From an uncultured Pseudomonadota bacterium (lineage in GTDB: Bacteria; Oederibacteriota; Muellerivitia; Muellerivitales; Muellerivitaceae): 37,696 nucleotides of DNA. Made by a program: the position numbers and the translations under genes. Positions 2,643 through 29,452 of this stretch are shown here, piece after piece (position 1 is the stretch's first letter; every line of letters begins with the position of its first letter). The notes beneath the pieces are model-generated. The model did not search any database. It was not told the origin of the DNA and saw only the letters and a list, made by a program, of their open reading frames with translations. Location of the stretch: contig CAWJKT010000031.1 in NCBI GenBank assembly GCA_963843375.1, positions 1 to 37,696 on the forward strand, read 5' to 3'.

Positions 2643-2672
2643 TTGACACTCCGGAATGGCTCTGGTCAACCT
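2643..2672 (+). promoter_or_regulatory. Putative sigma70 promoter of rpmH
   Basis: Exact TTGACA at 2643-2648 and a weak -10 (CAACCT) 18 bp downstream, ending about 25 nt before the rpmH ATG. Confidence 0.4.
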
Positions 2673-2696
2673 CGACCCTCTTTTTTCGACAAGCCC

Positions 2697-2747
2697 ATGC
2701 AACCCACATTTCGCCCCCATCGCAAGAAGCGTGCCCGCCGCATCGGT
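2697..2747 (+). pseudogene. rpmH: 5' fragment (17 codons) of 50S ribosomal protein L34, truncated at the junction
   Basis: Translates to [17 protein letters not shown], matching the L34 N-terminus (MKRTFQPS..KR.R.HGFR.RM). It then continues KTVP* instead of FRAR. Confidence 0.8.
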
Positions 2748-5700
2748 AAAACCGTTCCCTGAGGAACATAACCTGCCACCTGGGCCTGATAGGTAAAGTT
2801 GTAGATCCCCACAGGGAGCGAACCCCAACTCACCGTCAATGTCTTTGTGGCGGCGTTATAAACCGTCGCCCCTCCAGATGGAATAGTCCCAAAACCGACG
2901 AAACTCAGATAGGGCGGAAGCACGTCGCTGACTATCACGTTGTTGGCCGGTCCGGCTGGAACGTTCAAACTGACCGTATAGGTAATGATGTCGTTGACAT
3001 CGGCCACCGTTTCGGAAGCCGTCTTGCTGATGTCAACATCCGGGGTTGGGGTGAAGGTCATAGTTGGAGTCCATGTGGTTGTGGGGGTGGGTGTGTTGGT
3101 AAAGGTATTGGTGGAAGTCGGGGTGGGGGTACTGGTGAATGTATTCGTGGGTGTAAAGCTATTGGTTGGAGTGGAACTGGCGGTAAAGGTTTTGGTGTTC
3201 GTTGGTGTGTTGGTCAGGGTGTAAGTATTCGTATTCGTGAAAGTCTGGGTGACCGTTAAGGTTTCAGTGTTCGTGACCGTCGCGGTGGGGGTACTCGTCG
3301 GTACGGGAGTCGTGGTATTAGTCGCGGTGGAGGTTTCAGTAGGGGTGGCCGTGTTGGTGGCGGTATTAGTCGGTGTATAGGTATTGGTGTTCGTCGAAGA
3401 AGCCGTATTCGTTGGGGTATTCGTAGGGCTGGAGGTTGAGGTATTGGTACAAGTTGCCGTTGAAGTATTGCTGTTGGTTGGAGTCGAGGTGGGGGTTTGG
3501 GTTGGGACAGGAGTCGTTGTATTGGTCGCGCTGAATGTCGCGGTCAAGGTAGCCGTATTGGTGGAAGTATTGGTGCCGGTCAAGGTGGCAGTATTCGTTG
3601 GAGTACTGGTCAAGGTGAAAGTGAAAATCGGCGTATTGGTGGAAGTGGGGGTGGGGGTATTAGTAGGCGTATTGGTTTGAGTGTCAGTGGAAGTTGCGGT
3701 GGGAGTATTGGTTTCACTAGGTGTAGCCGTATTGGTGAAAGTGCTGGTTGGCGTGTTGGTGACCGTTGCCGTTGAAGTCAGGGTGAGAGTGTTCGTCGTC
3801 GTGGCCGTAACAGTGGATGTCGCGGTGTTAGTGGGCGTACTCGTGTCCGTAGGCGTAATGATGGCCGTATTCGTCGGTGTCAGTGTAATTGTATTGGTAG
3901 CCGTATTCGTCGCGGTGTTGGTTGGAGTCTTTGTAGCGCTGTTAGTAGCCGTATTCGTCGCGGTTGAGGTTGAGGTATCGGTCGGAGTGTTAGTGGTAGT
4001 TGAAGTTGGAGTGGTCGTAGGCGAATTGGTTGAGGTGTTGGTGGGGCTATTGGTACGGGTTGGGGTTGCGGTATTCGTCGTCGTGGCCGTAACAGTGGAT
4101 GTCGCGGTGTTGGTAGGCGTGCTCGTATCCGTGGGCGTAATGATGGCCGTATTCGTCGGTGTCAGTGTAATTGTATTGGTAGCCGTATTCGTGGTGGTGT
4201 TGGTTGGAGTCGCTGTAGTGGTGTTAGTAACCGTATTTGTCGCGGTTGAGGTTGCGGTATTGGTCGAAGTATTGGTGGGTGTATTGGTAGTCGTCATGGT
4301 TGGAGTATTAGTTGTAGTTGGAGTTGGTGTGGTCGTGGGCGTGTTGGTTGAAGTGTAGGTCGGGCTATTGGTGCGGGTTGAGGTTGAGGTATTCGTCGAC
4401 GTGGCCGTGACAGTGGATGTCGCTGTGTTAGTGGCCGTACTCGTGTCCGTGGACGTAATGATGGCCGTATTTGTTGGAGTCATCGTAATCGTATTGGTAG
4501 CCGTATTCGTAGCGGTGTTCGTCGAAGTAGTTGTGGTGGTATTGGTTGTCGTGGCGGTCGCCGTGTTGGTCGTCGTGGCCGTAGCGGTGCGTGTAGTCGT
4601 GAGGGTGGCTGAATTGGTGGTGCTGGCGGTTGTGGTTGCGGTGGCGGAGTTAGTCGCTGAGGCCGTTGTCGTGGCAGTGGCGCTATTCGTAGCTGAGGCA
4701 GTGGCTGAATTAGTGGCGCTGGCGGTTGTAGTTGCGGTGGCGGAGTTGGTCGCTGAGGCCGTGGTTGTATTGGTGGGGGTGGCTGTCGCTGTGTTCACCA
4801 ACGTATTGGTGGGAGTATTGGTAAGGGTTGGCGTGGGAGTCCGGGTTGGCGTATTTGTGGGGGTATTGGTGGGGGTAGGAGTAGACGTATTCGTGGGGGT
4901 GTTCGTCGGTGTGGGAGTAGGGGTATTGGTAGGAGTGTTGGATCGACTGGGGGTAGGTGTATTTGTGGGTGTTGAAGTCGTTGTGTTAGTGGTGGTGGCT
5001 GAAGCCGTGGAGGTTGCCGAATTAGTCGTGGTGCTGGTAGCGGAAGATGTTGTGGAACTGGTAGTCGTCGCGGTGGCCGAGTTGGTTGTAGTCGCGGAAG
5101 CCGTGGAGGTGGCCGAACTGGTCGTGGTACTCGTGGTGGTGGCCGAGGCCGTGCGCGTGGTCGTGGCGGTGGCTGAATTAGTGGCGCTGGCGGTTGTAGT
5201 TGCGGTGGCGGAGTTAGTCGCTGAGGCCGTGGCTGTATTGGTGGGGGTGGCTGTCGCCGAGTTAGTGGCGCTGGCGGTTGCCGTTTTGGTTGCGCTGGGT
5301 GTGGGCGTGGAGGTGGGAGTGGGTGTTGTCGTGTTGGTAGGTGTTTTAGTGGGTGTATTGGTGGGCGTCGGAGTAGCGCAGTTACCGGTAAATTGGAAAG
5401 ACTGGAAGCTTGAATTTTCGCAATTGGTGGAGACTATACCCATATATCCGCTGGTACAACCGCTACCCGTGAAAGTTGCCGAGGCCGTGGCCGAGCCGAG
5501 TCCCGCCTGTGAGGTGGCGAGGGTCACGATATATTGGCAACTACTGTTAATGACCACCTGCACCCAAGAGGGACAGCTGCTGATGGGTGATCCCGCCGGA
5601 AGCGTCGCCGTGGCAACCGTTGAAGCAGCCGATGAGGTTTTGGAACCACTGTAAGTCACCCAATACAAGGTGCCAGTGTTGGATGACCCGTTGTTAAAGA

Positions 5701-7027
5701 ATTGAAGGCCGTAGGCATCCCCCGTCGTCTGACTGTATCCAAAAACCAACCCGCCGAAGTTGCCGCCATTCGTGCTCGTGCACATCGAAACCTGCAGGGT
5801 CCCCGGACCGCTTTGAACCTGGTTGTTCAATAAGAAATTATTGAGTCCATTACAACCCGAACTCATTGAAACCGACCCTCCCGATTCACTATAAGTTCCC
5901 TCGCCCGGCGGATTGATTCCAGACACCCATCCGGATGGTACGAAGGTGCCGTTGAAACTCGTGGTCACTGAGCATTGTTGGGTCGGATTACACTCATATT
6001 GCGCCACAATGGCCTGCTGCCAGAAACTCGACTTGGCATATTGAGTACCACTCACATTTAATCCCCATTGCAAGCTCATGGCACCGCTCTGGAAATTCGA
6101 ACCCAAGTCATAGTTTCTGTCCCGGTCGGAGGAGCCCGACCCGCTGCCGGGACAATTCAAGACGCCAGGGGCGCTGGTATAAACCGGGGGCCCGCCATTG
6201 TTGGTACCGCCGGTATTGGTCGCGGGTCCCGAACCATAGGGGTCGACTTGATCGACGTCCCCGTTAGTGCCGGACCAACATTCTTCCGCCCCGCCCACGA
6301 CCGACATTTGGGTATCCGAAGTGGAACAATCCATCCCCAAACAGGACCAGTTCAAATCGGCGTCAGGAGGAGCGGCGCCGTAAACAATCTCCCCGTTTTC
6401 TTCGATGTGCCAGGCGCTGTTGCCATCGGCTATAGCCACGGCGTCGGTGCTGGTGACTGCGGGGTTGGTGTAAAGCTCCACCAACGATTCACCCGCACAG
6501 CTGCCGCCGGGAGTCACGGGATAAACATATTGTTCTCCCCCTGAACCAGCGGTTCCGCCTAAAAGGGTCGGACTGATGGTATAACGAATGTTGTAAAAGG
6601 TATTAGCGTAGCCGCCATAGGTGACTCCCGCCCCTTCTTGCGTTCCCGCGGGCGTAGTCGACCCGTTAAAAGTCACTCCTGTCAGCACGGGCGGCGCGCC
6701 GTTCGAACCATAGTCGTATTCGATATAAAGGTAAGCCGTTACCGGTGTGGCACCAGGAGGTAGAGTAACGGTGAGTGATTGACCACATGTGCCGCCGACA
6801 ACTGTCTCCTGCAAACCAACTCCCTCGGCCACTAATTGTTGCGTTTGAGAAGTACCCGGTGCGGGATTGCCTGAGGAACAACCGGTATTGAAAGTAACTT
6901 GGGAGAAAGATCGACCAGCGCTTAAAAGGGAAATCGCAAAAATAAAAAACTTACAAAGATTCAATCTGAAACTTTGTTGGGACATTTTTAAAAAATCTTG
7001 ATCGGTTACAGATACTTTTTTCATCAA
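2748..7027 (-). CDS. Giant secreted/surface protein: signal peptide, Cys/Gly-rich domains, about 780-aa Thr-rich stalk, DUF11-like domain truncated at the junction
   Basis: Hydrophobic leader [17 protein letters not shown] (start 7027 or 6985). About 16 Cys in the first 550 aa. T-x-T-x repeats at about 3040-5377. ISKTAS...DIITYTVSL...NVIVSDVLP is DUF11-like. The ORF tail after QGTVL is unrelated sequence. Confidence 0.85.
3040..5377 (-). repeat. Low-complexity coding repeat (TPTNT/TATNS units) with three longer internal duplications
   Basis: Near-identical 130-140 bp blocks at about 3792-3929, 4074-4211 and 4392-4518, encoding TNTATNTIT(L/M)TPTNTAIIT(P/S)TDTST(P/A)[11 protein letters not shown]. 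Confidence 0.9.
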
Positions 7028-14291: not shown

Positions 14292-15083
14292 TTATATTTT
14301 TTCTTTAGGATGCCGCAGGATAATCCAGATAATCACAAGAACCGACAGAAAAATAATGATCCCGCTCACGGCCTGTGACGCCGAGTTAAAGATAATCAAA
14401 TAATGTTTGTTCCAATCCCGTCTCCAAAATTCAATGACGAGCCGTAACGTTCCATAGGTAAGACCATATAAAGAAATCGTCAGCCATTGGTAACGAATGG
14501 TCCAACGCCTCGTCCAAAGCAGGAGCAGAAAAAGCGTAAAATCCCCGGCCATTTCCCAAAGCTGGGTAGGAAGATGCGGGATATTGTCCCCCGCCCCCGG
14601 AAAAATCATCCCGTGAACCGGGTCTTCAATTCCATAACAACAACCGTTTAAAAAGCATCCCACCCGCCCGATGGCGTGGCCCAGGAGGATATAAGGCGCC
14701 ACCAAATCAAAGCAGTAACTGATCGGCCATTTTTCCGCGCGAAACCAGTAAAAAGCCACTATCAAAGCCCCAAAAAGGCCCCCATAAAACACCAAACCGC
14801 CTTGCCATATTTTGACCGCGTCATACCAGTGGCCGTTTTCAAACTCCGTGTAGTTTTCCAAAACGTAAAACAACCTCGCCCCTAAAAGCGAGAAGACAAT
14901 AACATAGACCCCCAGGTCGAAAGCCTTTTGAAAACCTTGTTCATAGCTGATCCCCACTTTGGGACCGATATATTTACCCGCGTCTCTGGCGAAAAGAAAA
15001 ATACTGAACCCCAGCGCCACCGCCATGCAAAGGCCGTAGGAATAAAAGTGAATCGGGCCTATGGACCACAAAATCGGATACAT
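14292..15083 (-). CDS. lgt: Prolipoprotein diacylglyceryl transferase
   Basis: GARLFYV, IWQGGLVFYGG, IGRVGCFLNGCCYG, PTQLWE and R..IEFWR motifs. Confidence 0.95.
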   Translation of the reverse strand: MYPILWSIGPIHFYSYGLCMAVALGFSIFLFARDAGKYIGPKVGISYEQGFQKAFDLGVYVIVFSLLGARLFYVLENYTEFENGHWYDAVKIWQGGLVFYGGLFGALIVAFYWFRAEKWPISYCFDLVAPYILLGHAIGRVGCFLNGCCYGIEDPVHGMIFPGAGDNIPHLPTQLWEMAGDFTLFLLLLWTRRWTIRYQWLTISLYGLTYGTLRLVIEFWRRDWNKHYLIIFNSASQAVSGIIIFLSVLVIIWIILRHPKEKI

Positions 15084-15572
15084 TTAAACCCTTTCCCAAG
15101 ACTGCTTTGGTTTACCAAAAAAATAACCCAACAATAATAGAGTCAAACCGACCGTGATACAGGAATCCGCCAAGTTGAAAATATAAGGAAACCACTGGTG
15201 CTGATGGAAGCGGACATCGATAAAATCCACCACCTTCCTGTAAAAGACCCTATCAATGAAGTTACCCATCGCCCCGCCCCAAATCAACCCCAGAGCGAAC
15301 CGCTGAAGCCTTTTTTCAGGAGGAACAAACCGTTGATAGGCATAAACGATCAAACCCGCCCCAAAAGTAATGGTGACAAAAAAAGGGATTCGGATATAAG
15401 CGGGAGTATTGGCCATAAAACCAAAAGCCGCGCCCGGATTTTGGATATAAGTTAAATAAAGGTAATCACGAATCACCGTAATCGAATCTCCCATCCGGCA
15501 ATAATGCATAATAAGGAGTTTCGAAATTTGATCGGATAGAACCGCGAGAATGGAAACTCTTCGAATACTCAT
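15084..15572 (-). CDS. lspA: Lipoprotein signal peptidase II, downstream copy
   Basis: DQISK, NPGAAFG, GAMGNFIDR, VVDFI and FNLAD motifs; both catalytic Asp present. Confidence 0.95.
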   Translation of the reverse strand: MSIRRVSILAVLSDQISKLLIMHYCRMGDSITVIRDYLYLTYIQNPGAAFGFMANTPAYIRIPFFVTITFGAGLIVYAYQRFVPPEKRLQRFALGLIWGGAMGNFIDRVFYRKVVDFIDVRFHQHQWFPYIFNLADSCITVGLTLLLLGYFFGKPKQSWERV

Positions 15573-16051
15573 GCCCGGGTCTTCTGTCGATGACCCACAA
15601 TGTACTCAAATAGAAGGTAGGTTAGACCCACAGTGATACAAGCGTCCGCTACGTTGAAGATATAAGGAAACCACTGGTATTCGTAGTAACGCATTTCAAT
15701 GAAATCGACGACTTTGCCATATAAAAGCCGGTCCACCAAGTTTCCCAAAGCACCTCCCCAAACCAGCCCCAGGGCGATTCGGGTCCAAATCCTCTCATGG
15801 GCCAACAACTTTTGGTACATATATACGATAAAGGTCGCCGCCAGCGTGGCTGTGATGAAAAAGGGAATGCGCACGAAGGGCTCCAAATTAGACATGAAGC
15901 CAAAGGCCGTCCCGGGATTTTGGATATAGGTGAAATAAACGAAATCGGGCAAAAGGGGAATGGACTCATTTAAGGACATTTTGCTCAAAATCAGGAATTT
16001 GGTGGCCTGATCCAGGGCCACCACCAACATGGAAATTCCAGCCAGCGGCAT
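15569..16051 (-). CDS. lspA: Lipoprotein signal peptidase II, upstream copy
   Basis: DQATK, NPGTAFG, GALGNLVDR, VVDFI and FNVAD motifs. ATG 16051 overlaps the repaired ileS stop. Confidence 0.95.
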   Translation of the reverse strand: MPLAGISMLVVALDQATKFLILSKMSLNESIPLLPDFVYFTYIQNPGTAFGFMSNLEPFVRIPFFITATLAATFIVYMYQKLLAHERIWTRIALGLVWGGALGNLVDRLLYGKVVDFIEMRYYEYQWFPYIFNVADACITVGLTYLLFEYIVGHRQKTRA

Positions 16052-18913
16052 CAATCTTTGCCGTCCCCGACAGGCTGGAAATTTTGGACGATTGGCCCGC
16101 ATCGGTGGCAGATGTCGGGATAGGTTTTATCCATTTGCTCAGGGGGATAATAGTTCCAGCATCGGGCGCATTTTTGACCCGAGGATTTGCGGGCGATTGT
16201 TTTTAGCTTAAGATTGGCGTCTTCCGCCTGCCAAAGCCTCGGGTGACCCCTCCCCATCCTTTAATTCGACCTTGGAAACCAAAAAGAAGTAGCGAAGATC
16301 ATGATGATGCTTTTGAAGGATTTTTTTTACTTTTTCATTGCCCACAAAAAGCTCCACTTCGCCTTCCAGCGAACTTCCGATAGTCTTGGCTTGCCTTAAA
16401 CCTTCGAGAGATTTCAGGACCGCCCGCTTGACGGAAAAGATAGTTTCCCATTCCTGCGCAAGGGCATCCATGGATTCAAAATCCTGTCCCTGGGCCTTAT
16501 TGGTTATTTCTTTCAAAAGAGGCCAATGGGCTTCGAACACGCTCTTTCCTTCTTTGACCTTGAAGGCCTCCGGTAAAGATTGCCATATCTCTTCGGCGGT
16601 AAAAGAAAGGATGGGCGCCACCGCGACCACAAAACCTTTCAGGATATCGTAAAGGACTGTCTGGGCTGCACGGCGTTCCTTTGAATCGGTCGCAAAGGTG
16701 TAAAGCCGGTCCTTCAAAATGTCGAAATAACCGGCGCTAAGCCCGACGGAAAAGAACTTGTCAATATCGTGGAAGACCCTAGTGAATTGATAATTCTCGT
16801 AGGCCTGGTTGATGGTGAATAGAGTCTCCTGGGCTTCCCTAATCGCCCAGAAGTCCAGGGGGGTGAAGTCCTTTTCGCCCACGCGATTCACCGCCGGGTC
16901 AAAATCCGAAAGATTGCCTAAGATGAAACGAAAGGTGTTTCGAATTCGGCGATAAGCTTCCGACATGCGTTGGAGCATTTCCTCGCTGATGACCACGTCT
17001 TCCGTATAATTCTCGGAAGAGACCCAAAGCCGCAGGATGTCAGCGCCATACTTTTTCATCATTTCCAAGGGGTCGATAACGTTGCCCGCGCTCTTGTGCA
17101 TGGCCTTCCCCTGGGCGTCCAATACCCATCCATGCGTCAAGACCACGGTAAATGGAGCGTGATTCTTCAAGGCCACTCCGGTCCAAAGTGCGTGCTGGAA
17201 CCAGCCGCGGTGCTGATCGCCGCCTTCAAGGTAAAGAACAGTTTCGGCTTTCTGCAACTCGGGCCTCTGGTCCATCACGGCGAAATGGGAGCTGCCGGAC
17301 TCGAACCAAACGTCCAGAATATCCTCTTCCTTCACGAACTCGGCGGAGCCACAGGCGCATTTGAAACCTTGCGGCAGAACATCCTGAGCTTGATGCTGGA
17401 ACCAGCCGTCGATTCCCTCTTTTTGAACCAGAGACACGATCGATTCCAGGACCTTTTTATCCTCAACAGGCTTCCCGCAAAGTTTGCAATAAACCACGGT
17501 AATGGGAACCCCCCATGCCCTTTGACGGGAAATACACCAATCGGAACGCCCTTCAACCATGTTTCGAATGCGATCCTTTCCCCAGGCGGGTATCCATTGG
17601 ACCTTTTCGATCTCAGCCAGACATCTCTTTCGTAAATCCTTGTGGTCCAATTCAATGAACCACTGGGCGGTAGCCCGGAAAATGATGGGATTCTTCGAGC
17701 GCCAGCAATGGGGATAACTGTGCTGGATGGTTTGCAATGAGAGAAGCTTCCCTAAATACTTTAGTTTTTCAACGATCTTCGGGTTGGCTTCCCAAACGGA
17801 CATTCCCTCATATTCCTTCACCCGGGCGTCATAACGCCCAGCCTCATTGACGGGTGAATAAACCGGAAGATTGTATTTAAGGCCGATCTCATAATCTTCC
17901 CGGCCATGGCCGGGCGCCGTATGGACCAAGCCCGTTCCCGTATCAGCCGTCACATGGGTTCCCACCATGACCAGGGAATCCTGATCCAGGAATGGATGCC
18001 GTCCAATGGCCCTGTCCAACCGCTCGCCCCTGACTTCATCGATAATTTTGAAGTCCGTGGACTTCCATCCGCAGACACCCGCCACCTGGGGCAAGAGGAC
18101 CTTGGCCAAAACGTAATAGGCTTCGCCTACCTGTACCGTGACATATTCAAAATCCGGGTGGACTGAAATCCCCAGGTTGGCTGGCAAGGTCCAGGGTGTG
18201 GTGGTCCAAATCAAAAATGACAGATTTTTTAAGGGGGTATTGGGAAAAACGCCTTTCGGAAGCTGTTTCACGGGAAAAGCCACCGTCACGGAAAGGGATT
18301 CGTGATCGGCGTATTCCACTTCGGCCTCAGCCAGGGCGGTTTTACAGACCGGGCACCAATGAATGGGGCGAAGCCGCCGGCTGACGTAACCATCCGAAAG
18401 CAGCTGGGTCAGCGCCTTCACTAGTGAAAATTCATAGGTGGGGTCCATCGTCATATAGGGATGGTTGAAATCACCGAAAATGCCCAGACGCTTGAACTCG
18501 TCCCTTTGGCGGTTAAGGAATTTCTCCGCGTATTTGCGGCACTCCTTGCGGATTTCAACCTTGGACATGGTCTTGGCCTTAGACCCCAATTGCTCCACCA
18601 CCTTATGTTCAATGGGCATACCATGGCAGTCCCAACCCGGCACATAAGGGGTATCGTGGCCCCGCAAAGCCTGGTACTTCACGATAATGTCTTTTAATAC
18701 TTTATTCAGGGCGTGACCCATATGTATGTCGCCGTTGGCGAAAGGTGGGCCGTCATGCAGGACATATTTGGGGGCCCTAGGTTTCTCGAAGGTCCGGTTG
18801 TAAAAGCCCAAATGGTCCCAGAGTTTTAACCTCTCCGGTTCGGTTTGGGGCAGGTTGGCCTTCATGGGAAAGGAAGTCTGGGTAATGTTGAGGGTTGACT
18901 TGTAATCCGCCAT
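16051..18913 (-). CDS. ileS: Isoleucine--tRNA ligase, type 1; one apparent frameshift near 16234
   Basis: HDGPPFANGDIHMGH, WTTTPWT, GTGLVH, DWCISRQRAWG and AMHKS motifs. Removing one T from a TTT run restores the C-terminal CARC...CHRC zinc finger. Confidence 0.97.
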
Positions 18914-19023
18914 TTTTCGTCCAAATTCCTGGGATTTAAGACCGAAAGCTTATCAAATGCCCTTGGAAATGTTTAGTGTATTTTTGGCTGGTTTGGGAAG
19001 GAACCGGGGATTACAAATCACTT

Positions 19024-20328
19024 CTATCCATTCACCCGGAGGATTGAATTGTTCCCGCCCAATCCGTCATGGACATGCTCGGGGCTCGATGGATCGGAAA
19101 TCCATTCCAAATCATCCAAAACAAATTTGTAATGGTAGATACCGGGATTCAAGGAAATAATAAAACGGAAACTACCATCTTCTTGCCGGACCATAAGATC
19201 CGCGTCCTTATCCCAGTTGTTGAAATTTCCCACCAAGGAAACCTTTTGAAGCTCCTTTTGGGGCCGGTAGGTAATGGTAATCTTGATGGGCGGCTCAAAT
19301 GCCACGATCCGGTTGCGTCCCTGAGACTTGGCGACATAAAGGCTACTGTCGGCCTTCTTGACCAGATCCTCCTCATTGGACGCGTCCACGGGAAAGGTGG
19401 CGACTCCCCCTGAGACGGTGATCTTGGCCATAGGCTGGGATCGCATGTGATCAAAAAGAGTTTCAGCGATTCTTTGGCGGATTCTTTCTCCCAGTTCTGT
19501 AGCGCGCTTGCGGCTGGTTTCAGGAAGGACGATGACCATTTCCTCGCCTCCGTAGCGGGCGACAATATCCACTTCCCGGGCTTCCTGTTTGAGAATGGTC
19601 GCGATTTTTTTTAATACCTCGTTCCCCGCCGGGTGGCCATTAGAATCGTTGTATTTCTTAAAATGGTCGATATCCAGGATAACGAGGGACAAAAGACGGT
19701 GGTAGCGCTCGGCCCTGAGCCGTTCTTCTTTCAACCTTTCCAGGAAATAGCCGAAGTTATAAAGACCGGTTAAGCGGTCAGTAATGGCCATTTGCCTGGC
19801 ACGTTCATATAGTAGGGCATATTCGATCGCCAGAACATCCTGTGTGCCGCCATCCTCGCGAAACCGCATCGCTCCCTCGAAAAAGACAAGCCCCAATCGG
19901 TTTAACAGCATGGACACCTGGCTGACGGCGGGAAAATGGCCCGATATCTCGTGCTGGCCCTGGGGGCCCAAATCGACAATTTCACGCACGGCTTCACGCA
20001 CCGCATCCCGCATGGAGAAAAGGAGGAAAACCATATCGGTGGAAGATAACTGATGGTCCGTCTGGAGTTTTTTCAAATGGGCCAGTATCTGGCCAAACTC
20101 GTCGTCCACGGCCTGTTCCACGCTTCCCGACCTCTCCACCACAGCCACTAAATCAAAGAGAAGACCGCGCACCTCATAAAAAACACCATCGTTCCCGCTA
20201 AATCCTTCCAAGCGGTTGGACAATTGGCGGACTGAGGCTTGCCACCGGTCGCGAAGTACATGTTCCTTTTTTTGAAGAAACAAGGATAAGTTATTTTGTA
20301 ATGTGTCCATGAGTTTAATTTGTTCCAT
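19024..20328 (-). CDS. Diguanylate cyclase: RsbRD_N-like helical sensor, GGDEF domain, C-terminal AMPK-beta-like CBM48 glycogen-binding domain
   Basis: AITDRLTGLYN, ILDIDHFKKYND, I-site REVD five residues before GGEEM, and KSQGRN. C-terminus VSLVGNFNNW...LNPGIYHYKFVLDDLEWISDP...GGNNSIL. Confidence 0.9.
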   Translation of the reverse strand: MEQIKLMDTLQNNLSLFLQKKEHVLRDRWQASVRQLSNRLEGFSGNDGVFYEVRGLLFDLVAVVERSGSVEQAVDDEFGQILAHLKKLQTDHQLSSTDMVFLLFSMRDAVREAVREIVDLGPQGQHEISGHFPAVSQVSMLLNRLGLVFFEGAMRFREDGGTQDVLAIEYALLYERARQMAITDRLTGLYNFGYFLERLKEERLRAERYHRLLSLVILDIDHFKKYNDSNGHPAGNEVLKKIATILKQEAREVDIVARYGGEEMVIVLPETSRKRATELGERIRQRIAETLFDHMRSQPMAKITVSGGVATFPVDASNEEDLVKKADSSLYVAKSQGRNRIVAFEPPIKITITYRPQKELQKVSLVGNFNNWDKDADLMVRQEDGSFRFIISLNPGIYHYKFVLDDLEWISDPSSPEHVHDGLGGNNSILRVNG

Positions 20329-20371
20329 TATTTAAAAATGAGAAGGCGTGGAAGGGCGTGGAAAGCAGGAT

Positions 20372-21895
20372 TTATTTTTTCAGCATCTTACCGTATAGCT
20401 CCATATATTTCCCTGCTGAAACATCCCAAGAAAAATCCTGTTTCATGGCGCGTTGGACAAGCTCTTTCCACAATTTGGGTTGGTGGAAAGCCTCCACGGC
20501 GCGGCGGATAGCAAATAAAAGTTCATTGCCGCGGTATTGCTCGAAGGCAAAACCCGTTCCCTTTCTCCCGTCCGGGGAGAGGTTTTCGACCGTGTCGGCC
20601 AAGCCGCCGGTCTTACGGACAATGGGGATGGTCCCATATTTCATGGCAATCATTTGGCCCAAACCACAGGGTTCAAACCGCGATGGCATCAAGAACAGGT
20701 CGCTTCCCGCATAAATCAATTTTGCCAGCCGGCTGTCAAACTTCAAGGTCACGGAAAACTTGGAAGGAAATTGGTGCCGCAACCCCTCGAACAGAGTGTG
20801 GTAACGGGTGTCGCCCGTTCCTAAAACCACGAATTGGACGTCCATCGCCAAAAAGTTTTCAGCGATTTCGCCAATAAGATCCAGTCCCTTTTGGTCAACC
20901 AGCCGGGAAACCAGACCGACAATGGGAACCTCCGGCTTAAAAGGCAAATCTAATTCTTCAACCAGTTTCTTTTTGGAAGCTGCTTTTTTTTCATGATTCT
21001 TGAGAGTGTATTGAGCGGGTATTTCCTTATCCGTGGCCGGATTCCATTCGTCGTAATTGATGCCGTTCAGGATTCCATAAAGCGATGAAACGCGCGAGCC
21101 CAGGACGCCTTGGAGACCATGCCCAAACTCGTCCGTTTGTATCTCCTGGGCGTAACTTTCCGAAACGGTGCTCAAAGCATCGGCGTAAACGAGCCCGGCC
21201 TTGAGATAGTTGATCTGGTCGTAAAATTCCAATTTTTCATGTTGAAATTCCTCCCAACCGATTCCGGTCATGGGCAGAATATATTTTGGAAAAAGGCCCT
21301 GGTAAGCCATGTTATGAATGGTGAATAAGCTTCGAAGAGCGGCGAAATGGGGATCGGATTTATAGAGGGTCTTTAAATAAACCGCCGCCAAACCGGTCTG
21401 CCAATCGTTGAGATGAAGAATATCAGGATACCAGCGAAGCGCTTTAAGCATTTCGAATATGGCCTTGGAGAAAAAAGCAAACCTCTCCGCATTGTCGTGA
21501 TAATCCCCTTCCGCACTCCCGTAAAAACCATCACGGTCAAAATAACGGTCATTCTGGATGAAATAGGCCGTTCCAGCCGTAGAACCCAACTGGGTGGATA
21601 GAATGTCGGCGGTCATGTCCCCCATTCCCATCGGCACATTCAAACCCTTCACTTCCAATTTCAGCCTGAATTTCTCTGGGGAAATACTCTTGTATTTGGG
21701 TAAAACGATCGCAACTTCACAACCCGATTTCATCAAAGCCTCAGGCAGGGAACCCGCGACATCGGCCAGTCCGCCCGTTTTAGCGAACGGAACCGCTTCT
21801 GAAGCAACCAATAAAACCTTAAACTTGTTCCGGTGATGTCCCGGACGGGATGCGGGGGATATGTTTGTTGATTTTTTGGCGGCAGTACGTGGCAT
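20372..21895 (-). CDS. glgA: Glycogen synthase (GT5)
   Basis: PFAKTGGLADV, HLNDWQT, FTIHNMAYQG, SRLVDQKG and MPSRFEPCGL motifs; GGGAG RBS before ATG 21895. Confidence 0.97.
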   Translation of the reverse strand: MPRTAAKKSTNISPASRPGHHRNKFKVLLVASEAVPFAKTGGLADVAGSLPEALMKSGCEVAIVLPKYKSISPEKFRLKLEVKGLNVPMGMGDMTADILSTQLGSTAGTAYFIQNDRYFDRDGFYGSAEGDYHDNAERFAFFSKAIFEMLKALRWYPDILHLNDWQTGLAAVYLKTLYKSDPHFAALRSLFTIHNMAYQGLFPKYILPMTGIGWEEFQHEKLEFYDQINYLKAGLVYADALSTVSESYAQEIQTDEFGHGLQGVLGSRVSSLYGILNGINYDEWNPATDKEIPAQYTLKNHEKKAASKKKLVEELDLPFKPEVPIVGLVSRLVDQKGLDLIGEIAENFLAMDVQFVVLGTGDTRYHTLFEGLRHQFPSKFSVTLKFDSRLAKLIYAGSDLFLMPSRFEPCGLGQMIAMKYGTIPIVRKTGGLADTVENLSPDGRKGTGFAFEQYRGNELLFAIRRAVEAFHQPKLWKELVQRAMKQDFSWDVSAGKYMELYGKMLKK

Positions 21896-21941
21896 TAATC
21901 TCCCAACAATTTTCAATTAAGTCCAGCGATGGAACTGTGGC

Positions 21942-21969
21942 ATTATAAAAGTCAACCAAGGGCTGTCAA
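21942..21969 (-). promoter_or_regulatory. Consensus sigma70 promoter for glgA and the diguanylate cyclase
   Basis: Minus strand TTGACA (21969-21964)-N16-TATAAT (21947-21942). Confidence 0.75.
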
Positions 21970-22040: not shown

Positions 22041-23576
22041 TCAAGGTAAATTCCATCGTTTATCGATATCTGCGGCGGTGATTTTAGATTTCGATTTAAG
22101 CGTTTTTTCCAATAGCTCCCTTATCCCAATTTGGGTTTTCCGGCGGGATTTCAATCTGCGGAAAAAATCATACCCGAAAGACCCTCCCGCCAAAAAATCG
22201 TTTACAGCCACTTGGTATTTCCGCTTATCGTTCAAAAGTTCATTACCTACCTTGATTTGGTAGCCTTCGCTTGTTTTTTCAATTGTAAGTCCAGAGACTT
22301 GCAAAAAATTGGCCGACCCTTTTTCAGCGGCTGATTCTTCAAGGGCTTTTCTTAAATAGATGCCGGGGACGTCAATCGCCACGATCTGACAATCGGTTGG
22401 AAAAATCTCATACAAAATTTCCCGGGTCAGATCGCCTGAATTGAAGGCGGGTTTGAAACAACCGTTATTGAGCAGGGCGATTTCGGTTTGTGCCGATTCC
22501 CGCATGGCATCCGTAGTGATCTCCCCCACGAGGGAATCCCCGTTATCCGCCTTAGTGAAGTCCCCCGTCACTGACGCCAGAACCTCATCGAGCGGTTTTT
22601 GCTTAAGCTGATCCTTATATTTTTGCAAAAGCTCAACCATCTTGGGATCCTCCGGAAGATCCGACGTAATGGGAATAAGCTGGTAGTGGTAATCCTCAAT
22701 GGAATAAGCGGCGATCTTCGTTTTAGTATCCCGGTGTCCTTCGACGGTTATATCGAGTCGGCCCAGGTATAAACCTTGGGCGCCGGCTTGGCCGATAATC
22801 GGGCCCAATAGGTCTCCATTCTTGGATTGGTTGACCAATGGCGTTGTCAATAACGTCTGGCTATAACCGCCTATGACAACATGGATGAAAGGGTTATCTT
22901 TGGCGAATTTCTTATCCGTTTCGACGCCCAAATTACTCAAGACAATGAATATATCCGCGTCTTTTTTTAAAATTGAATGAAGGCCCTTTGCGGAGGCTCC
23001 GGGCGGATTAAATACGAGGCCGCTCACCGCTTCGCGCCCGATGAGAGAGGGAGTTTCGGGGTTGCAGAAACCAATGAGCCCCACGCGGACTCCGGTTGCT
23101 TTCAAAACGTAAGGCCGGATATAGGGTTGGCCGCCGCTAACCACATTGGCCGAAACCCAAGGGATATGGAATTTTTTTCTAAAATCCAAAAGAGCTTTTT
23201 TCCCATAAGTGAAATCCGACTCCCCCAAACAGATGGCGTCGTATCGCATCAATTGGTAGGCGTCGCAATCCACCTCGCCGTGGGTCAATTCGGAAAAGGC
23301 TGTTCCTGAAAATAAATCACCGCTATCCACGAGAACCACATGATCGGGGCCGACTTCTTTGCGTATTTTCTCGATCAGGGCCATTCGTCGGGTGACACCG
23401 CCGACGGGTTTGGAGAGATCATCCTGGTGAATAGGATCGTCCTGACCGTGGTGATCGTTTGTAAAAAGAATGGTGAGAGTGACTTCCCGGGCTAAAGAAC
23501 CAGCGGGCAAGGAAAGGGAGAAAACGGCCAAAAGAAAAAGAGATGGGATTTTTATCCCTTGTTTTTGGACTGCCAT
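22041..23576 (-). CDS. Exported UshA/CD73-like metallophosphoesterase / 5'-nucleotidase homolog with a degenerate active site
   Basis: Signal peptide; LTILFTNDHHG, DSGDLFSG, PWVSANV and YLGRLD motifs; C-terminal FLQVSGL and VAVNDFLAGG. Motifs GNHE, SH and GHSH are altered. Confidence 0.85.
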   Translation of the reverse strand: MAVQKQGIKIPSLFLLAVFSLSLPAGSLAREVTLTILFTNDHHGQDDPIHQDDLSKPVGGVTRRMALIEKIRKEVGPDHVVLVDSGDLFSGTAFSELTHGEVDCDAYQLMRYDAICLGESDFTYGKKALLDFRKKFHIPWVSANVVSGGQPYIRPYVLKATGVRVGLIGFCNPETPSLIGREAVSGLVFNPPGASAKGLHSILKKDADIFIVLSNLGVETDKKFAKDNPFIHVVIGGYSQTLLTTPLVNQSKNGDLLGPIIGQAGAQGLYLGRLDITVEGHRDTKTKIAAYSIEDYHYQLIPITSDLPEDPKMVELLQKYKDQLKQKPLDEVLASVTGDFTKADNGDSLVGEITTDAMRESAQTEIALLNNGCFKPAFNSGDLTREILYEIFPTDCQIVAIDVPGIYLRKALEESAAEKGSANFLQVSGLTIEKTSEGYQIKVGNELLNDKRKYQVAVNDFLAGGSFGYDFFRRLKSRRKTQIGIRELLEKTLKSKSKITAADIDKRWNLP

Positions 23577-23582
23577 GAAGGC

Positions 23583-23933
23583 TTAGAATTCGCTAACGGC
23601 GTCTTGTTCGGTTTTCAAAATGTGGAAAAGGCCCGGCAGTTCTAAAAGGTCAAAAACTTTGTAGATGTCGGGGCTGACATTGGCAATTTTGATGTCGCCG
23701 CGGTTTTTACGGACATCTTTGATGATGCTCATCAAAACTCCAAATCCCGCGCTGGATATATAGGTTAATTTTTTCATGTTGAGGACAATTTTATATTGTT
23801 TCTTCTTAAAGAGTTCCTGAAGAATGGCTTCAAATTCTCCGACCGTATTGATATCCAAAACTCCCTCGATATCAACCACCGTCACCGAAGTATTGGACAT
23901 GGCGGCTCGCGTGGCAAGCACCAAACGTTCCAT
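23583..23933 (-). CDS. STAS-domain anti-sigma factor antagonist (RsbV/SpoIIAA-like)
   Basis: IEGVLDINT and LTYISSAGFGVL with the conserved phospho-Ser region; AAGGAGG RBS. Confidence 0.9.
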   Translation of the reverse strand: MERLVLATRAAMSNTSVTVVDIEGVLDINTVGEFEAILQELFKKKQYKIVLNMKKLTYISSAGFGVLMSIIKDVRKNRGDIKIANVSPDIYKVFDLLELPGLFHILKTEQDAVSEF

Positions 23934-28977: not shown

Positions 28978-29452
28978 CTAGTTGAATTCTAAAAGCGAGA
29001 AAGCCAGATTTGTGCGGCGAAGACGACTGGAAATAAGACTGATCAAAGTGCAAAAAACCTCATAAGCCACCTCGGGGTTTTTTTTGAGAAATTTTTTAAA
29101 ATCATCCCCCTTGATCACATGAATCGAACAATCTTCCCGCGGCCTTGACCGTGGCGGAATAGGGGGCATCATCAAAAACGCTCATTTCCCCAAAAATGGA
29201 GCCGCGGCTCAAATCGGCCAAATACTTTTTTTCTCCCAGTTCTTTGCCGGATTTTGAAACTTCCGCTCTTCCATTAATAATAATGTGGAGGTTTCCGCCC
29301 GCCTGACCCTCTTCGATGATGACCTGTCCGGCTTTGAAATTTTGGACTTTTCCCAGTTTGAAAATCTGACTTAATATTTTGTCCTGCATGCCGTCGAATA
29401 AACTGACTTCTTTTAAAAAATCGGTCAGCGGCGCTTCTTTGCGGGTTGCCAT
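28978..29452 (-). CDS. Stand-alone cyclic-nucleotide-binding domain protein (no HTH); one apparent frameshift near 29137
   Basis: LKEVSLF, IIEEGQ...LHIIINGRAEV and GSIFGEMS...PYSATVKA. Removing one G continues AEDCSIHVI...RLRRTN. Confidence 0.85.

Follow-up and report, generated by a model that had tools for sequence, protein, structure and literature searches.

A conserved GGDEF-CBM48 fusion, encoded behind glgA in one bacterial family: a candidate cyclic-dinucleotide cyclase with a proposed link to glycogen

A 37,696-nt stretch of DNA from an uncultured bacterium (contig CAWJKT010000031.1 of assembly GCA_963843375.1; the whole stretch is referred to here as the window) holds, directly behind the glycogen synthase gene glgA, a gene for a protein that joins a GGDEF domain to a carbohydrate-binding module of family 48 (CBM48). 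The locus raises the question of whether such an enzyme takes its cue from the cell's glycogen, and which cyclic dinucleotide it would then make. The original prediction was of a glycogen-binding diguanylate cyclase co-transcribed with glgA. The fusion of GGDEF and CBM48 is a real, conserved and uncharacterised family. We consider it moderately probable, from the sequence evidence set out below, that the protein is a dimeric cytoplasmic cyclase of the GGDEF type that makes a cyclic dinucleotide and is bound to the cell's glycogen through its CBM48, which would localise or modulate the enzyme.

A conserved family with GGDEF and CBM48 in one chain

The cyclase gene occupies 19024..20328 of the window on the minus strand, the strand that also carries glgA and the promoter-like site before it; all coordinates without a contig prefix are those of the window. 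The open reading frame (ORF) is of 434 aa, with a likely product of 428 aa starting at M7, and encodes an RsbR-N-like domain followed by GGDEF and CBM48. Pfam searches of the 434-aa protein placed the GGDEF catalytic domain at residues 181-340 (19309..19788, minus strand; PF00990, E 6.6e-46, profile positions 1-161 of 161) and the CBM48 module, a match to AMPK1_CBM, at residues 359-433 (19030..19254, minus strand; PF16561, E 8.3e-12, 45.6 bits against a cut-off of 26.8). The AlphaFold model of the full-length protein, with a mean predicted local distance difference test score (pLDDT) of 78, showed helices in the N-terminal domain and a long helix that leads into the GGDEF fold, with an all-beta module at the C-terminus. 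No membrane segment or signal peptide was found, the highest Kyte-Doolittle mean over 19 residues being 1.3, and a secreted or membrane protein was ruled out on that value. The product of the ORF behind glgA is thus predicted to be a cytoplasmic protein; that it is soluble had been supposed from the outset.

The integrity of the fused frame was supported by comparison with other genomes of the window's own taxonomic family. An orthologue was present in 28 of 30 such genomes; the two in which it was missing have completeness values of 85% and 63%. In all 28 the match was an open frame without internal stops; it spanned GGDEF and CBM to residue 432-434 in 23, was shortened in two (ending at residues 403 and 413) and was interrupted by contig ends in three, two of which hold the gene in two pieces. 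The junction between CBM and GGDEF was also covered by contigs from the runs of two studies (18909-19815 and 18944-19587) with 0 differences and 0 indels; one of these two runs may be the source of the window. An assembly error as the origin of the fused frame is ruled out by the open orthologue frames and the contigs spanning the junction, and the presence of GGDEF and CBM48 in one protein is confirmed by these together with the Pfam matches.

The fusion extends well beyond this family. Of 99 genomes from the phylum of the window, 37 contained a GGDEF-CBM48 gene; they belong to 4 of 23 families, and the three families besides the window's own have a different N-terminal part. It was also present in 6 of 301 sampled genomes of Planctomycetota, some with N-terminal extensions reaching 650-706 aa. 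In a collection of 5.8 billion proteins, 117 of the 120 best clusters carried both PF16561 and PF00990, the other three being truncated, and an ESM Atlas cluster of 81 members had GGDEF in all, AMPK1_CBM in 77% and Planctomycetota as its commonest phylum. The family is found widely among uncultured bacteria of soil and fresh water; where databases name its members, they do so only as 'diguanylate cyclase (GGDEF)-like protein'. One relative of 691 aa (P0204) combines EAL, GGDEF and CBM48, its CBM being 62% identical to that of the window, with the same Asn and NFGY described below. A search for longer homologues found none above 760 aa, which is weak evidence. A full-text search of the literature found no paper on a GGDEF-CBM48 fusion, in keeping with the earlier statement that no characterised enzyme of this kind was known.

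A maximum-likelihood tree of 77 GGDEF domains, obtained by a quick search and rooted at the midpoint, placed all 28 CBM-linked domains together (SH-aLRT 96) and separated them from 35 generic domains and from 12 of the window's own genome. Within the same quick tree the GGDEF domain of locus L130, from genome G079 of the window's phylum, grouped with those of the Planctomycetota loci L128 and L129 (SH-aLRT 96), a placement that hints at transfer between phyla.

The N-terminal domain, from residue 7 to about residue 165 (19834..20310, minus strand), was helical in the AlphaFold model, as had been read from the sequence. Its description as an all-helical RsbRD_N-like domain derives from a weak Pfam match and the model. 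RsbRD_N (PF14361) matched residues 17-114 of the window protein at 22.3 bits, below the cut-off of 24.3, and gave matches with E up to 0.01 in 9 of 16 family members, the best of them at E 5.4e-8. A model of the domain by itself (pLDDT 76) aligned with 3zta_A, the N-domain of the Moorella stressosome protein RsbR, over 112 of 139 residues at rank 4 (Z 7.4, root-mean-square deviation 4.1), a Z within noise for helical bundles; other globin-like and B12-binding-domain helical bundles scored similarly, with VIA-align Z values up to 8.3 at noise level. A Foldseek search with the same domain model returned nothing at E up to 0.001.

Two copies of the N-terminal domain were modelled as a symmetric homodimer with an interaction prediction score from aligned errors (ipSAE) of 0.64 (runs of 0.21, 0.68 and 0.64), against 0.02 for the best control. 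Contact agreement was at least 77% and the pLDDT of the partner at least 62. Among proteins of solved structure, 20 of 30 homo-pairs and 1 of 23 single chains reached the ipSAE mark applied. The model supports, but does not show, a constitutive dimer formed through the N-terminal domain. It had been suggested originally that clustering on a glycogen granule could drive the dimerisation required for GGDEF catalysis. Since the N-terminal domain is itself modelled as a homodimer, clustering would be unnecessary for pairing the GGDEF domains, and granule-driven dimerisation was rejected as a necessity.

Active site and possible product

The GGDEF domain contains the DIDHFK motif, the active-site motif GGEEM (19537..19551, minus strand, read from the sequence) and, 5 residues before the GG(D/E)EF motif, an intact RxxD I-site of sequence REVD (19567..19578, minus strand), all as first reported. 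Among 141 family proteins GGEE[MLFV] was present in 140 and RxxD in 137. Foldseek searches with the whole model returned DgcR, WspR and PleD at E about 1e-15 (6zxb_A at E 6e-16); DgcR (6zxm) aligned at E 3.9e-36, and identity to DgcR in the structural alignment was 38%. Residues D219, K224, N227, R258, E262, E263, K334 and R338 were invariant in 16 diverse family members. K334 and R338 align with K289 and R293 of DgcR, and the metal ligands align too. A GGDEF domain without catalytic activity that acts as a receptor for nucleotides would agree with the non-canonical residues described below and with weak matches to a GdpP-type GGDEF profile in 5 of the 16 members (best E 3.8e-6). Such a loss of activity is nevertheless very improbable given that no variation was seen in GGEE, the metal-binding Asp, K334/R338 or N227 and that PF00990 is matched over its full length.

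The domain departs from canonical enzymes at two positions. At the base-selectivity position, alignments to solved enzymes place Asn236 (19621..19623, minus strand) opposite D344 of PleD, D191 of DgcR and S348 of GacA, the local sequence being Gly-Asn236 here, as against Gly-Asp in DgcR and a Marinobacter cyclase and Gly-Ser348 in GacA. At the cross-dimer base-contact position, where Arg is canonical and GacA has Tyr304, the alignment places Phe192 (19753..19755, minus strand), in a stretch that reads NFGY where canonical enzymes have NRR. All 141 family proteins have Asn at position 236 and either Phe or Tyr at position 192. Eight distant GGDEF-CBM loci of the phylum likewise have Asn (8/8), with Phe, Tyr or Leu at position 192 in the seven loci that cover it, and the same holds for seven further loci, six of them from Planctomycetota (Asn in 7/7, Phe or Tyr in 7/7).

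Generic GGDEF domains, drawn from 80 loci among the matches listed, have Asp in 87/87 and the cross-dimer Arg in 75/87, in a set biased to the GGEE type by the VARYGGEE search pattern. Two ordinary GGDEF genes within the same distant loci carry Asp and Arg. In the genome of the window the selectivity residue is Asp in 14 of 17 GGDEF matches; Asn occurs in the protein described here, in one unrelated GGDEF domain and in one degenerate domain. The second Asn-bearing GGDEF domain (contig C11, 380395-380871) reads 'NHRF' and GGEEF and has no CBM, and the tree does not place it in the CBM-linked group.

The two positions are those by which the product of GGDEF enzymes is known to be set. In three sources (PMC9140294, PMC8041772, PMC6456294), the Asp (D344 in PleD, D191 in DgcR) is described as hydrogen-bonding guanine, and Ser or Thr in its place defines the Hypr enzymes, which produce 3',3'-cGAMP, a cyclic dinucleotide of GMP and AMP, and revert to cyclic di-GMP (c-di-GMP) upon a change from Ser to Asp. 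The Asp is further described as conserved in strict c-di-GMP producers in PMC9140294. The cross-dimer residue is presented as a second determinant, the canonical Arg favouring guanine and Tyr304 standing in its place in GacA. PMC6456294 states that natural Ser/Thr enzymes are exclusively GGDE[F/Y] and that GGEEF-type motifs work with a long selectivity residue, under a 'Goldilocks' distance rule.

Against the Hypr class, the protein has Asn236 in place of Ser or Thr and lacks GGDE[F/Y], and it shares a cross-dimer residue other than Arg. Against the canonical diguanylate cyclases, it has the motif, the metal-binding Asp, the phosphate-binding Lys and Arg and the I-site, and lacks the guanine-selecting Asp. 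We regard the active site as an undescribed selectivity-site class, standing apart from both described classes of GGDEF enzyme at two product-setting positions. A literature search, the reach of which did not include the 2016 PNAS paper on Hypr enzymes, found nothing relevant on Asn at the GGDEF selectivity position.

With Asn in place of the guanine-selecting Asp, and Phe, Tyr or Leu in that of the cross-dimer Arg, c-di-GMP cannot simply be taken as the product, and the term 'diguanylate' in the original prediction is not supported for a family in which every member has Asn. An Asn of this kind, equal in length to Asp and so tolerated alongside GGEEF by the published 'Goldilocks' model, could accept a hydrogen bond from N1-H of guanine or donate one to N1 of adenine. 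On the sequence, a mixed or adenine-containing product of the 3',3'-cGAMP type appears about as likely as pure c-di-GMP. A bolder proposal, which we put forward only tentatively, is that the CBM48-linked GGDEF clade represents a second, independent route to purine promiscuity and that the protein may, while bound to glycogen, synthesise 3',3'-cGAMP or some other cyclic dinucleotide that contains adenine. The pairing of Asn with GGEEF would then satisfy the 'Goldilocks' distance rule that forbids Ser with GGEEF, and the carbon store would be reported by a messenger other than c-di-GMP.

A strict diguanylate cyclase that is tethered to glycogen and makes c-di-GMP only, with Asn236 selecting guanine through N1-H and O6, would be consistent with the full set of catalytic residues, the RxxD I-site and the reported function of GGEEF-type motifs with a long selectivity residue (PMC6456294). 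The genome would provide a setting for it, with a rich network of 15 PilZ matches and about 16 GGDEF domains, and with a separate DAC-type cyclase for c-di-AMP, so that no second adenine cyclase is needed. Set against this are the conservation of Asp in strict producers according to PMC9140294, in the generic domains and in most of those of the same genome, the uniform Asn of the family (141/141) and of the distant fusion loci (15/15), and the replacement of the guanine-favouring Arg in all fusion members. Strict c-di-GMP synthesis seems less likely than not. The PilZ matches and the DAC cyclase, taken together, make either c-di-GMP or a cGAMP-type compound plausible as the product.

Other features of nucleotide signalling in the genome were also recorded. 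The protein as the only route to c-di-AMP was ruled out by the DAC cyclase. The c-di-GMP-I/GEMM riboswitch (RF01051) gave no match in the genome, where the control likewise gave no match anywhere, so that this negative carries no information. A small stand-alone protein of 116 aa with a cyclic-nucleotide-binding domain is encoded in the window at 29102-29452 on the minus strand.

Predicted glycogen binding and the linkage to glgA

The C-terminal module contains the motifs GNFNNW, YHYKF, EW..DP and GGNNS in that order. In a phmmer search of the PDB the glycogen-binding domain of the beta1 subunit of AMP-activated protein kinase (AMPK) ranked first (1z0n, E 7.6e-7), followed by a GH13 pullulanase and Sip2. 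PMC2642990 lists W100, K126, W133, L146 and T148 of AMPK as contacting carbohydrate, their mutation lowering glycogen binding, and describes glycogen as an allosteric inhibitor of AMPK through this domain. Four of these five contact residues are kept: in the phmmer alignment W372, K401, W409 and L423 correspond to W100, K126, W133 and L146 of rat AMPK beta1, and Asn427 aligns with N150. Of 143 family proteins 142 retain W372, K401 and N427, as do 14/14 distant loci; at position 409 the family has Trp, whereas Trp, Tyr or Phe stands there in the distant loci, and position 423 is variable (L, M, Q, W, F, Y or V). The earlier identification of an AMPK-beta-type CBM with both stacking Trp residues and the Lys is borne out by this alignment and its conservation across the family.

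PF16561 matched all 16 of the diverse family members and CBM_48 (PF02922) matched 10. Among proteins that are not such fusions, the closest CBMs belong to alpha-amylases, a GH57 enzyme, a glucodextranase-type protein and proteins with several CBMs in tandem. A search of a representative library with the CBM only returned mostly tandem-CBM proteins and was unusable for counting GGDEF fusions, though P0204 was among its results.

The genome, which is 80% complete, has a pathway for glycogen, with glgP-like genes and two CBM_48 enzymes besides glgA, and the cyclase is its only AMPK1_CBM protein. For glgC (TIGR02091) the best score in this 80%-complete genome was 121 bits against a cut-off of 424.9. 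A glycogen phosphorylase match at 64901-67040 of contig C3 is split over several frames, which suggests frameshifts or assembly errors.

The glgA gene itself (20372..21916, minus strand) encodes a glycogen/starch synthase of glycosyltransferase family GT5 with 514 aa (Glyco_transf_5, E 2.5e-87; Glycos_transf_1, E 6.2e-13); its start is TTG, with an alternative ATG at 21895. A sigma-70-type promoter-like site, TTGACA-16 nt-TATAAT, lies 26 nt 5' of this TTG (21942..21969, minus strand) and matches at 12/12 positions, so that the perfect promoter sequence first reported is indeed present. Six perfect TTGACA/TATAAT sites with a spacing of N16-18 occur in the 4.05-Mb genome, against 1.2 expected from base composition. 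The intergenic gap had been given as 43 nt, which is correct as the distance to the first ATG at 20328 (20329..20371); measured to the conserved start M7 at 20310 it is 61 nt (20311..20371), and the latter is the more likely since the orthologues and the database gene call begin at M7. Neither a terminator-like site nor an obvious Shine-Dalgarno sequence was found in the gap. Within the window's own family the cyclase gene is probably transcribed together with glgA from the consensus promoter-like site.

Linkage of the two genes is complete in this family: glgA lies directly 5' on the same strand in 25/25 loci with upstream sequence, while the four loci without a glgA match end at or inside the cyclase gene. 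In 23 orthologous loci the gap between the genes had a median length of 59 nt, the shortest being 19 nt and the longest 257 nt.

Several observations weigh against the reading of the protein as a glycogen-bound cyclase working alongside GlgA, and two of them concern the module. T148 of AMPK is replaced by Gly425, and the CBM block, with model strands over residues 348-432, has a pLDDT of only 54-86. The remainder concern the linkage. Gaps of 146-257 nt in 5 of the 23 orthologous loci allow a separate promoter. The gene ileS lies 3' of the cyclase gene in 25 of 26 own-family loci. No glgA was found in any of 14 distant GGDEF-CBM48 loci, with flanks of up to about 8 kb on each side, comprising seven from the phylum's other families, six from Planctomycetota and one more from the phylum. 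Different genes flank the fusion in these distant loci, among them GH116, a Cof-type HAD phosphatase and M16 peptidases. With ileS kept equally and a long run of housekeeping genes on the same strand, the adjacency may be inherited order only.

One alternative is a CBM48 that does not bind glycogen in vivo, acting instead as an intramolecular or protein-protein regulatory module or binding another glucan or oligosaccharide, for example imported maltodextrins. The CBM of AMPK also packs on the kinase domain, and the loss of T148 and the variation at position 423 would be explained. Conservation of the stacking aromatics, the Lys and Asn427 across two phyla would be hard to account for without a sugar ligand, and the protein is predicted to be cytoplasmic, where glycogen is the main alpha-glucan; this alternative is accordingly improbable.

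Greater weight attaches to the possibility that the position behind glgA is inherited order without functional coupling, the gene forming a single-gene 'system' that reads glycogen, or something else, independently of GlgA. This is credible, if short of probable. It would account for the 14/14 distant loci without glgA, for the equal retention of ileS and for surroundings of mutually unrelated genes on the same strand, the run reading smc, ftsY, STAS, 5'-nucleotidase, glgA, the cyclase gene, ileS, two copies of lspA and lgt. It accords less well with an adjacency retained in 25/25 loci, which cover 15 genera or more and proteins of as little as 58% identity, with the short gaps, or with the substrate or ligand that GlgA and the cyclase would share, which would be a functional reason to stay linked. 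The glgA linkage is real and stable in one lineage; since all 14 distant loci are without glgA nearby, the fusion by itself does not entail it. Conservation of the linkage, named at the outset as a check on the prediction, thus holds within the family and not in the distant loci.

Some features of the surroundings stand apart from these considerations. Genes for M16 peptidases lie beside GGDEF-CBM48 genes in both phyla (loci L114, L115, L124 and L125), and a Cof-type HAD phosphatase (Hydrolase_3/S6PP-like) is encoded directly 3' of the fusion gene in L114 and L115. In the window, a STAS-domain protein (23583-23933) and a 5'-nucleotidase/metallophosphatase (22041-23576, minus strand) are encoded directly 5' of the promoter-like site of glgA. 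Tandem lspA paralogues for signal peptidase II (15569-16102 and 15084-15572, minus strand) follow ileS and are followed by lgt, the block spanning 14292-16102. An ORF of 1453 aa (2666-7027, minus strand) has a signal-like N-terminus and about 900 residues of low-complexity repeats of Thr, Pro, Asn, Ser and Ala; it had no Pfam match, and it explains a GC skew of +0.5 at 3-5 kb and several imperfect tandem repeats. The first 2700 nt of the window have a GC content of 0.61-0.73, compared with about 0.48 elsewhere, and ORFs overlapping on both strands, two of which were tried without a Pfam match; this region may be a foreign or chimeric contig end.

Proposed mechanism and comparison with known systems

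In the favoured reading, the CBM48 would bind the cell's own alpha-glucan, either glycogen or branched or linear oligomers, while the RsbR-N-like domain would make the dimer and might relay a second input through the linker helix. The CBM could attach the enzyme to glycogen granules, or it could alter the enzyme's activity when glycogen is bound, as happens in AMPK; under either role the size or state of the carbon store would set the cyclic-dinucleotide signal. Within the family of the window the gene is fixed directly behind glgA and is probably transcribed with it.

Cyclic-dinucleotide signalling and glycogen storage both govern settling, persistence and starvation in bacteria. The only direct printed link found runs from the nucleotide to a glycogen enzyme: c-di-GMP regulates the glycogen-degrading enzyme GlgX of Streptomyces, as described in PMC9530166. 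The cyclase family would be the reverse arm, and would amount to a bacterial counterpart of AMPK glycogen sensing carried by a single polypeptide, which lends itself to expression and assay. Since its active site departs from both described classes of GGDEF enzyme, the family also offers a natural test of the rules of base selectivity, and it is a possible new source of cGAMP-type signals.

The nearest parallel for the module is the CBM48 of the AMPK beta subunit, represented by the rat beta1 glycogen-binding domain (1z0n/1z0m), which is the best PDB match and in which the equivalents of W372, K401, W409 and L423 are W100, K126, W133 and L146. The logic is also alike, a signalling enzyme being joined to a glycogen-binding module. 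Unlike in AMPK, where it is carried on the scaffold subunit of a kinase, the module here shares a single chain with a bacterial cyclase, and T148 has become Gly. The Streptomyces GlgX system resembles the present one in tying a cyclic dinucleotide to glycogen metabolism with a CBM48-bearing protein involved. It differs in that, as PMC9530166 describes it, the nucleotide there binds the glycogen enzyme, whereas here the nucleotide-making enzyme carries the predicted glycogen-binding module.

The N-terminal part recalls the non-haem globin-type N-terminal domains of RsbR stressosome sensors, including that of Moorella (3zta), to the extent that RsbRD_N is matched in 9 of the 16 members; unlike RsbR, the cyclase chain is without a STAS domain, and the window protein itself falls below the Pfam cut-off. 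Compared with PleD, WspR and DgcR, the protein has the same fold, catalytic residues, I-site and helical linker into the DxLT turn, and differs from PleD and DgcR in having Asn236 for the guanine-binding Asp and NFGY for NRR. With the Hypr enzymes GacA of Geobacter and Bd0367 of Bdellovibrio it shares the replacement of the selectivity Asp by a residue that can act as donor as well as acceptor of a hydrogen bond and, with GacA, an aromatic residue in place of the cross-dimer Arg (Tyr304 aligning with Phe192) as well as the I-site sequence REVD. It is distinguished from the Hypr enzymes by an Asn rather than Ser or Thr, by GGEE[MLFV] rather than GGDE[F/Y], and by input through CBM48 and an RsbR-N-like domain in place of a receiver domain.

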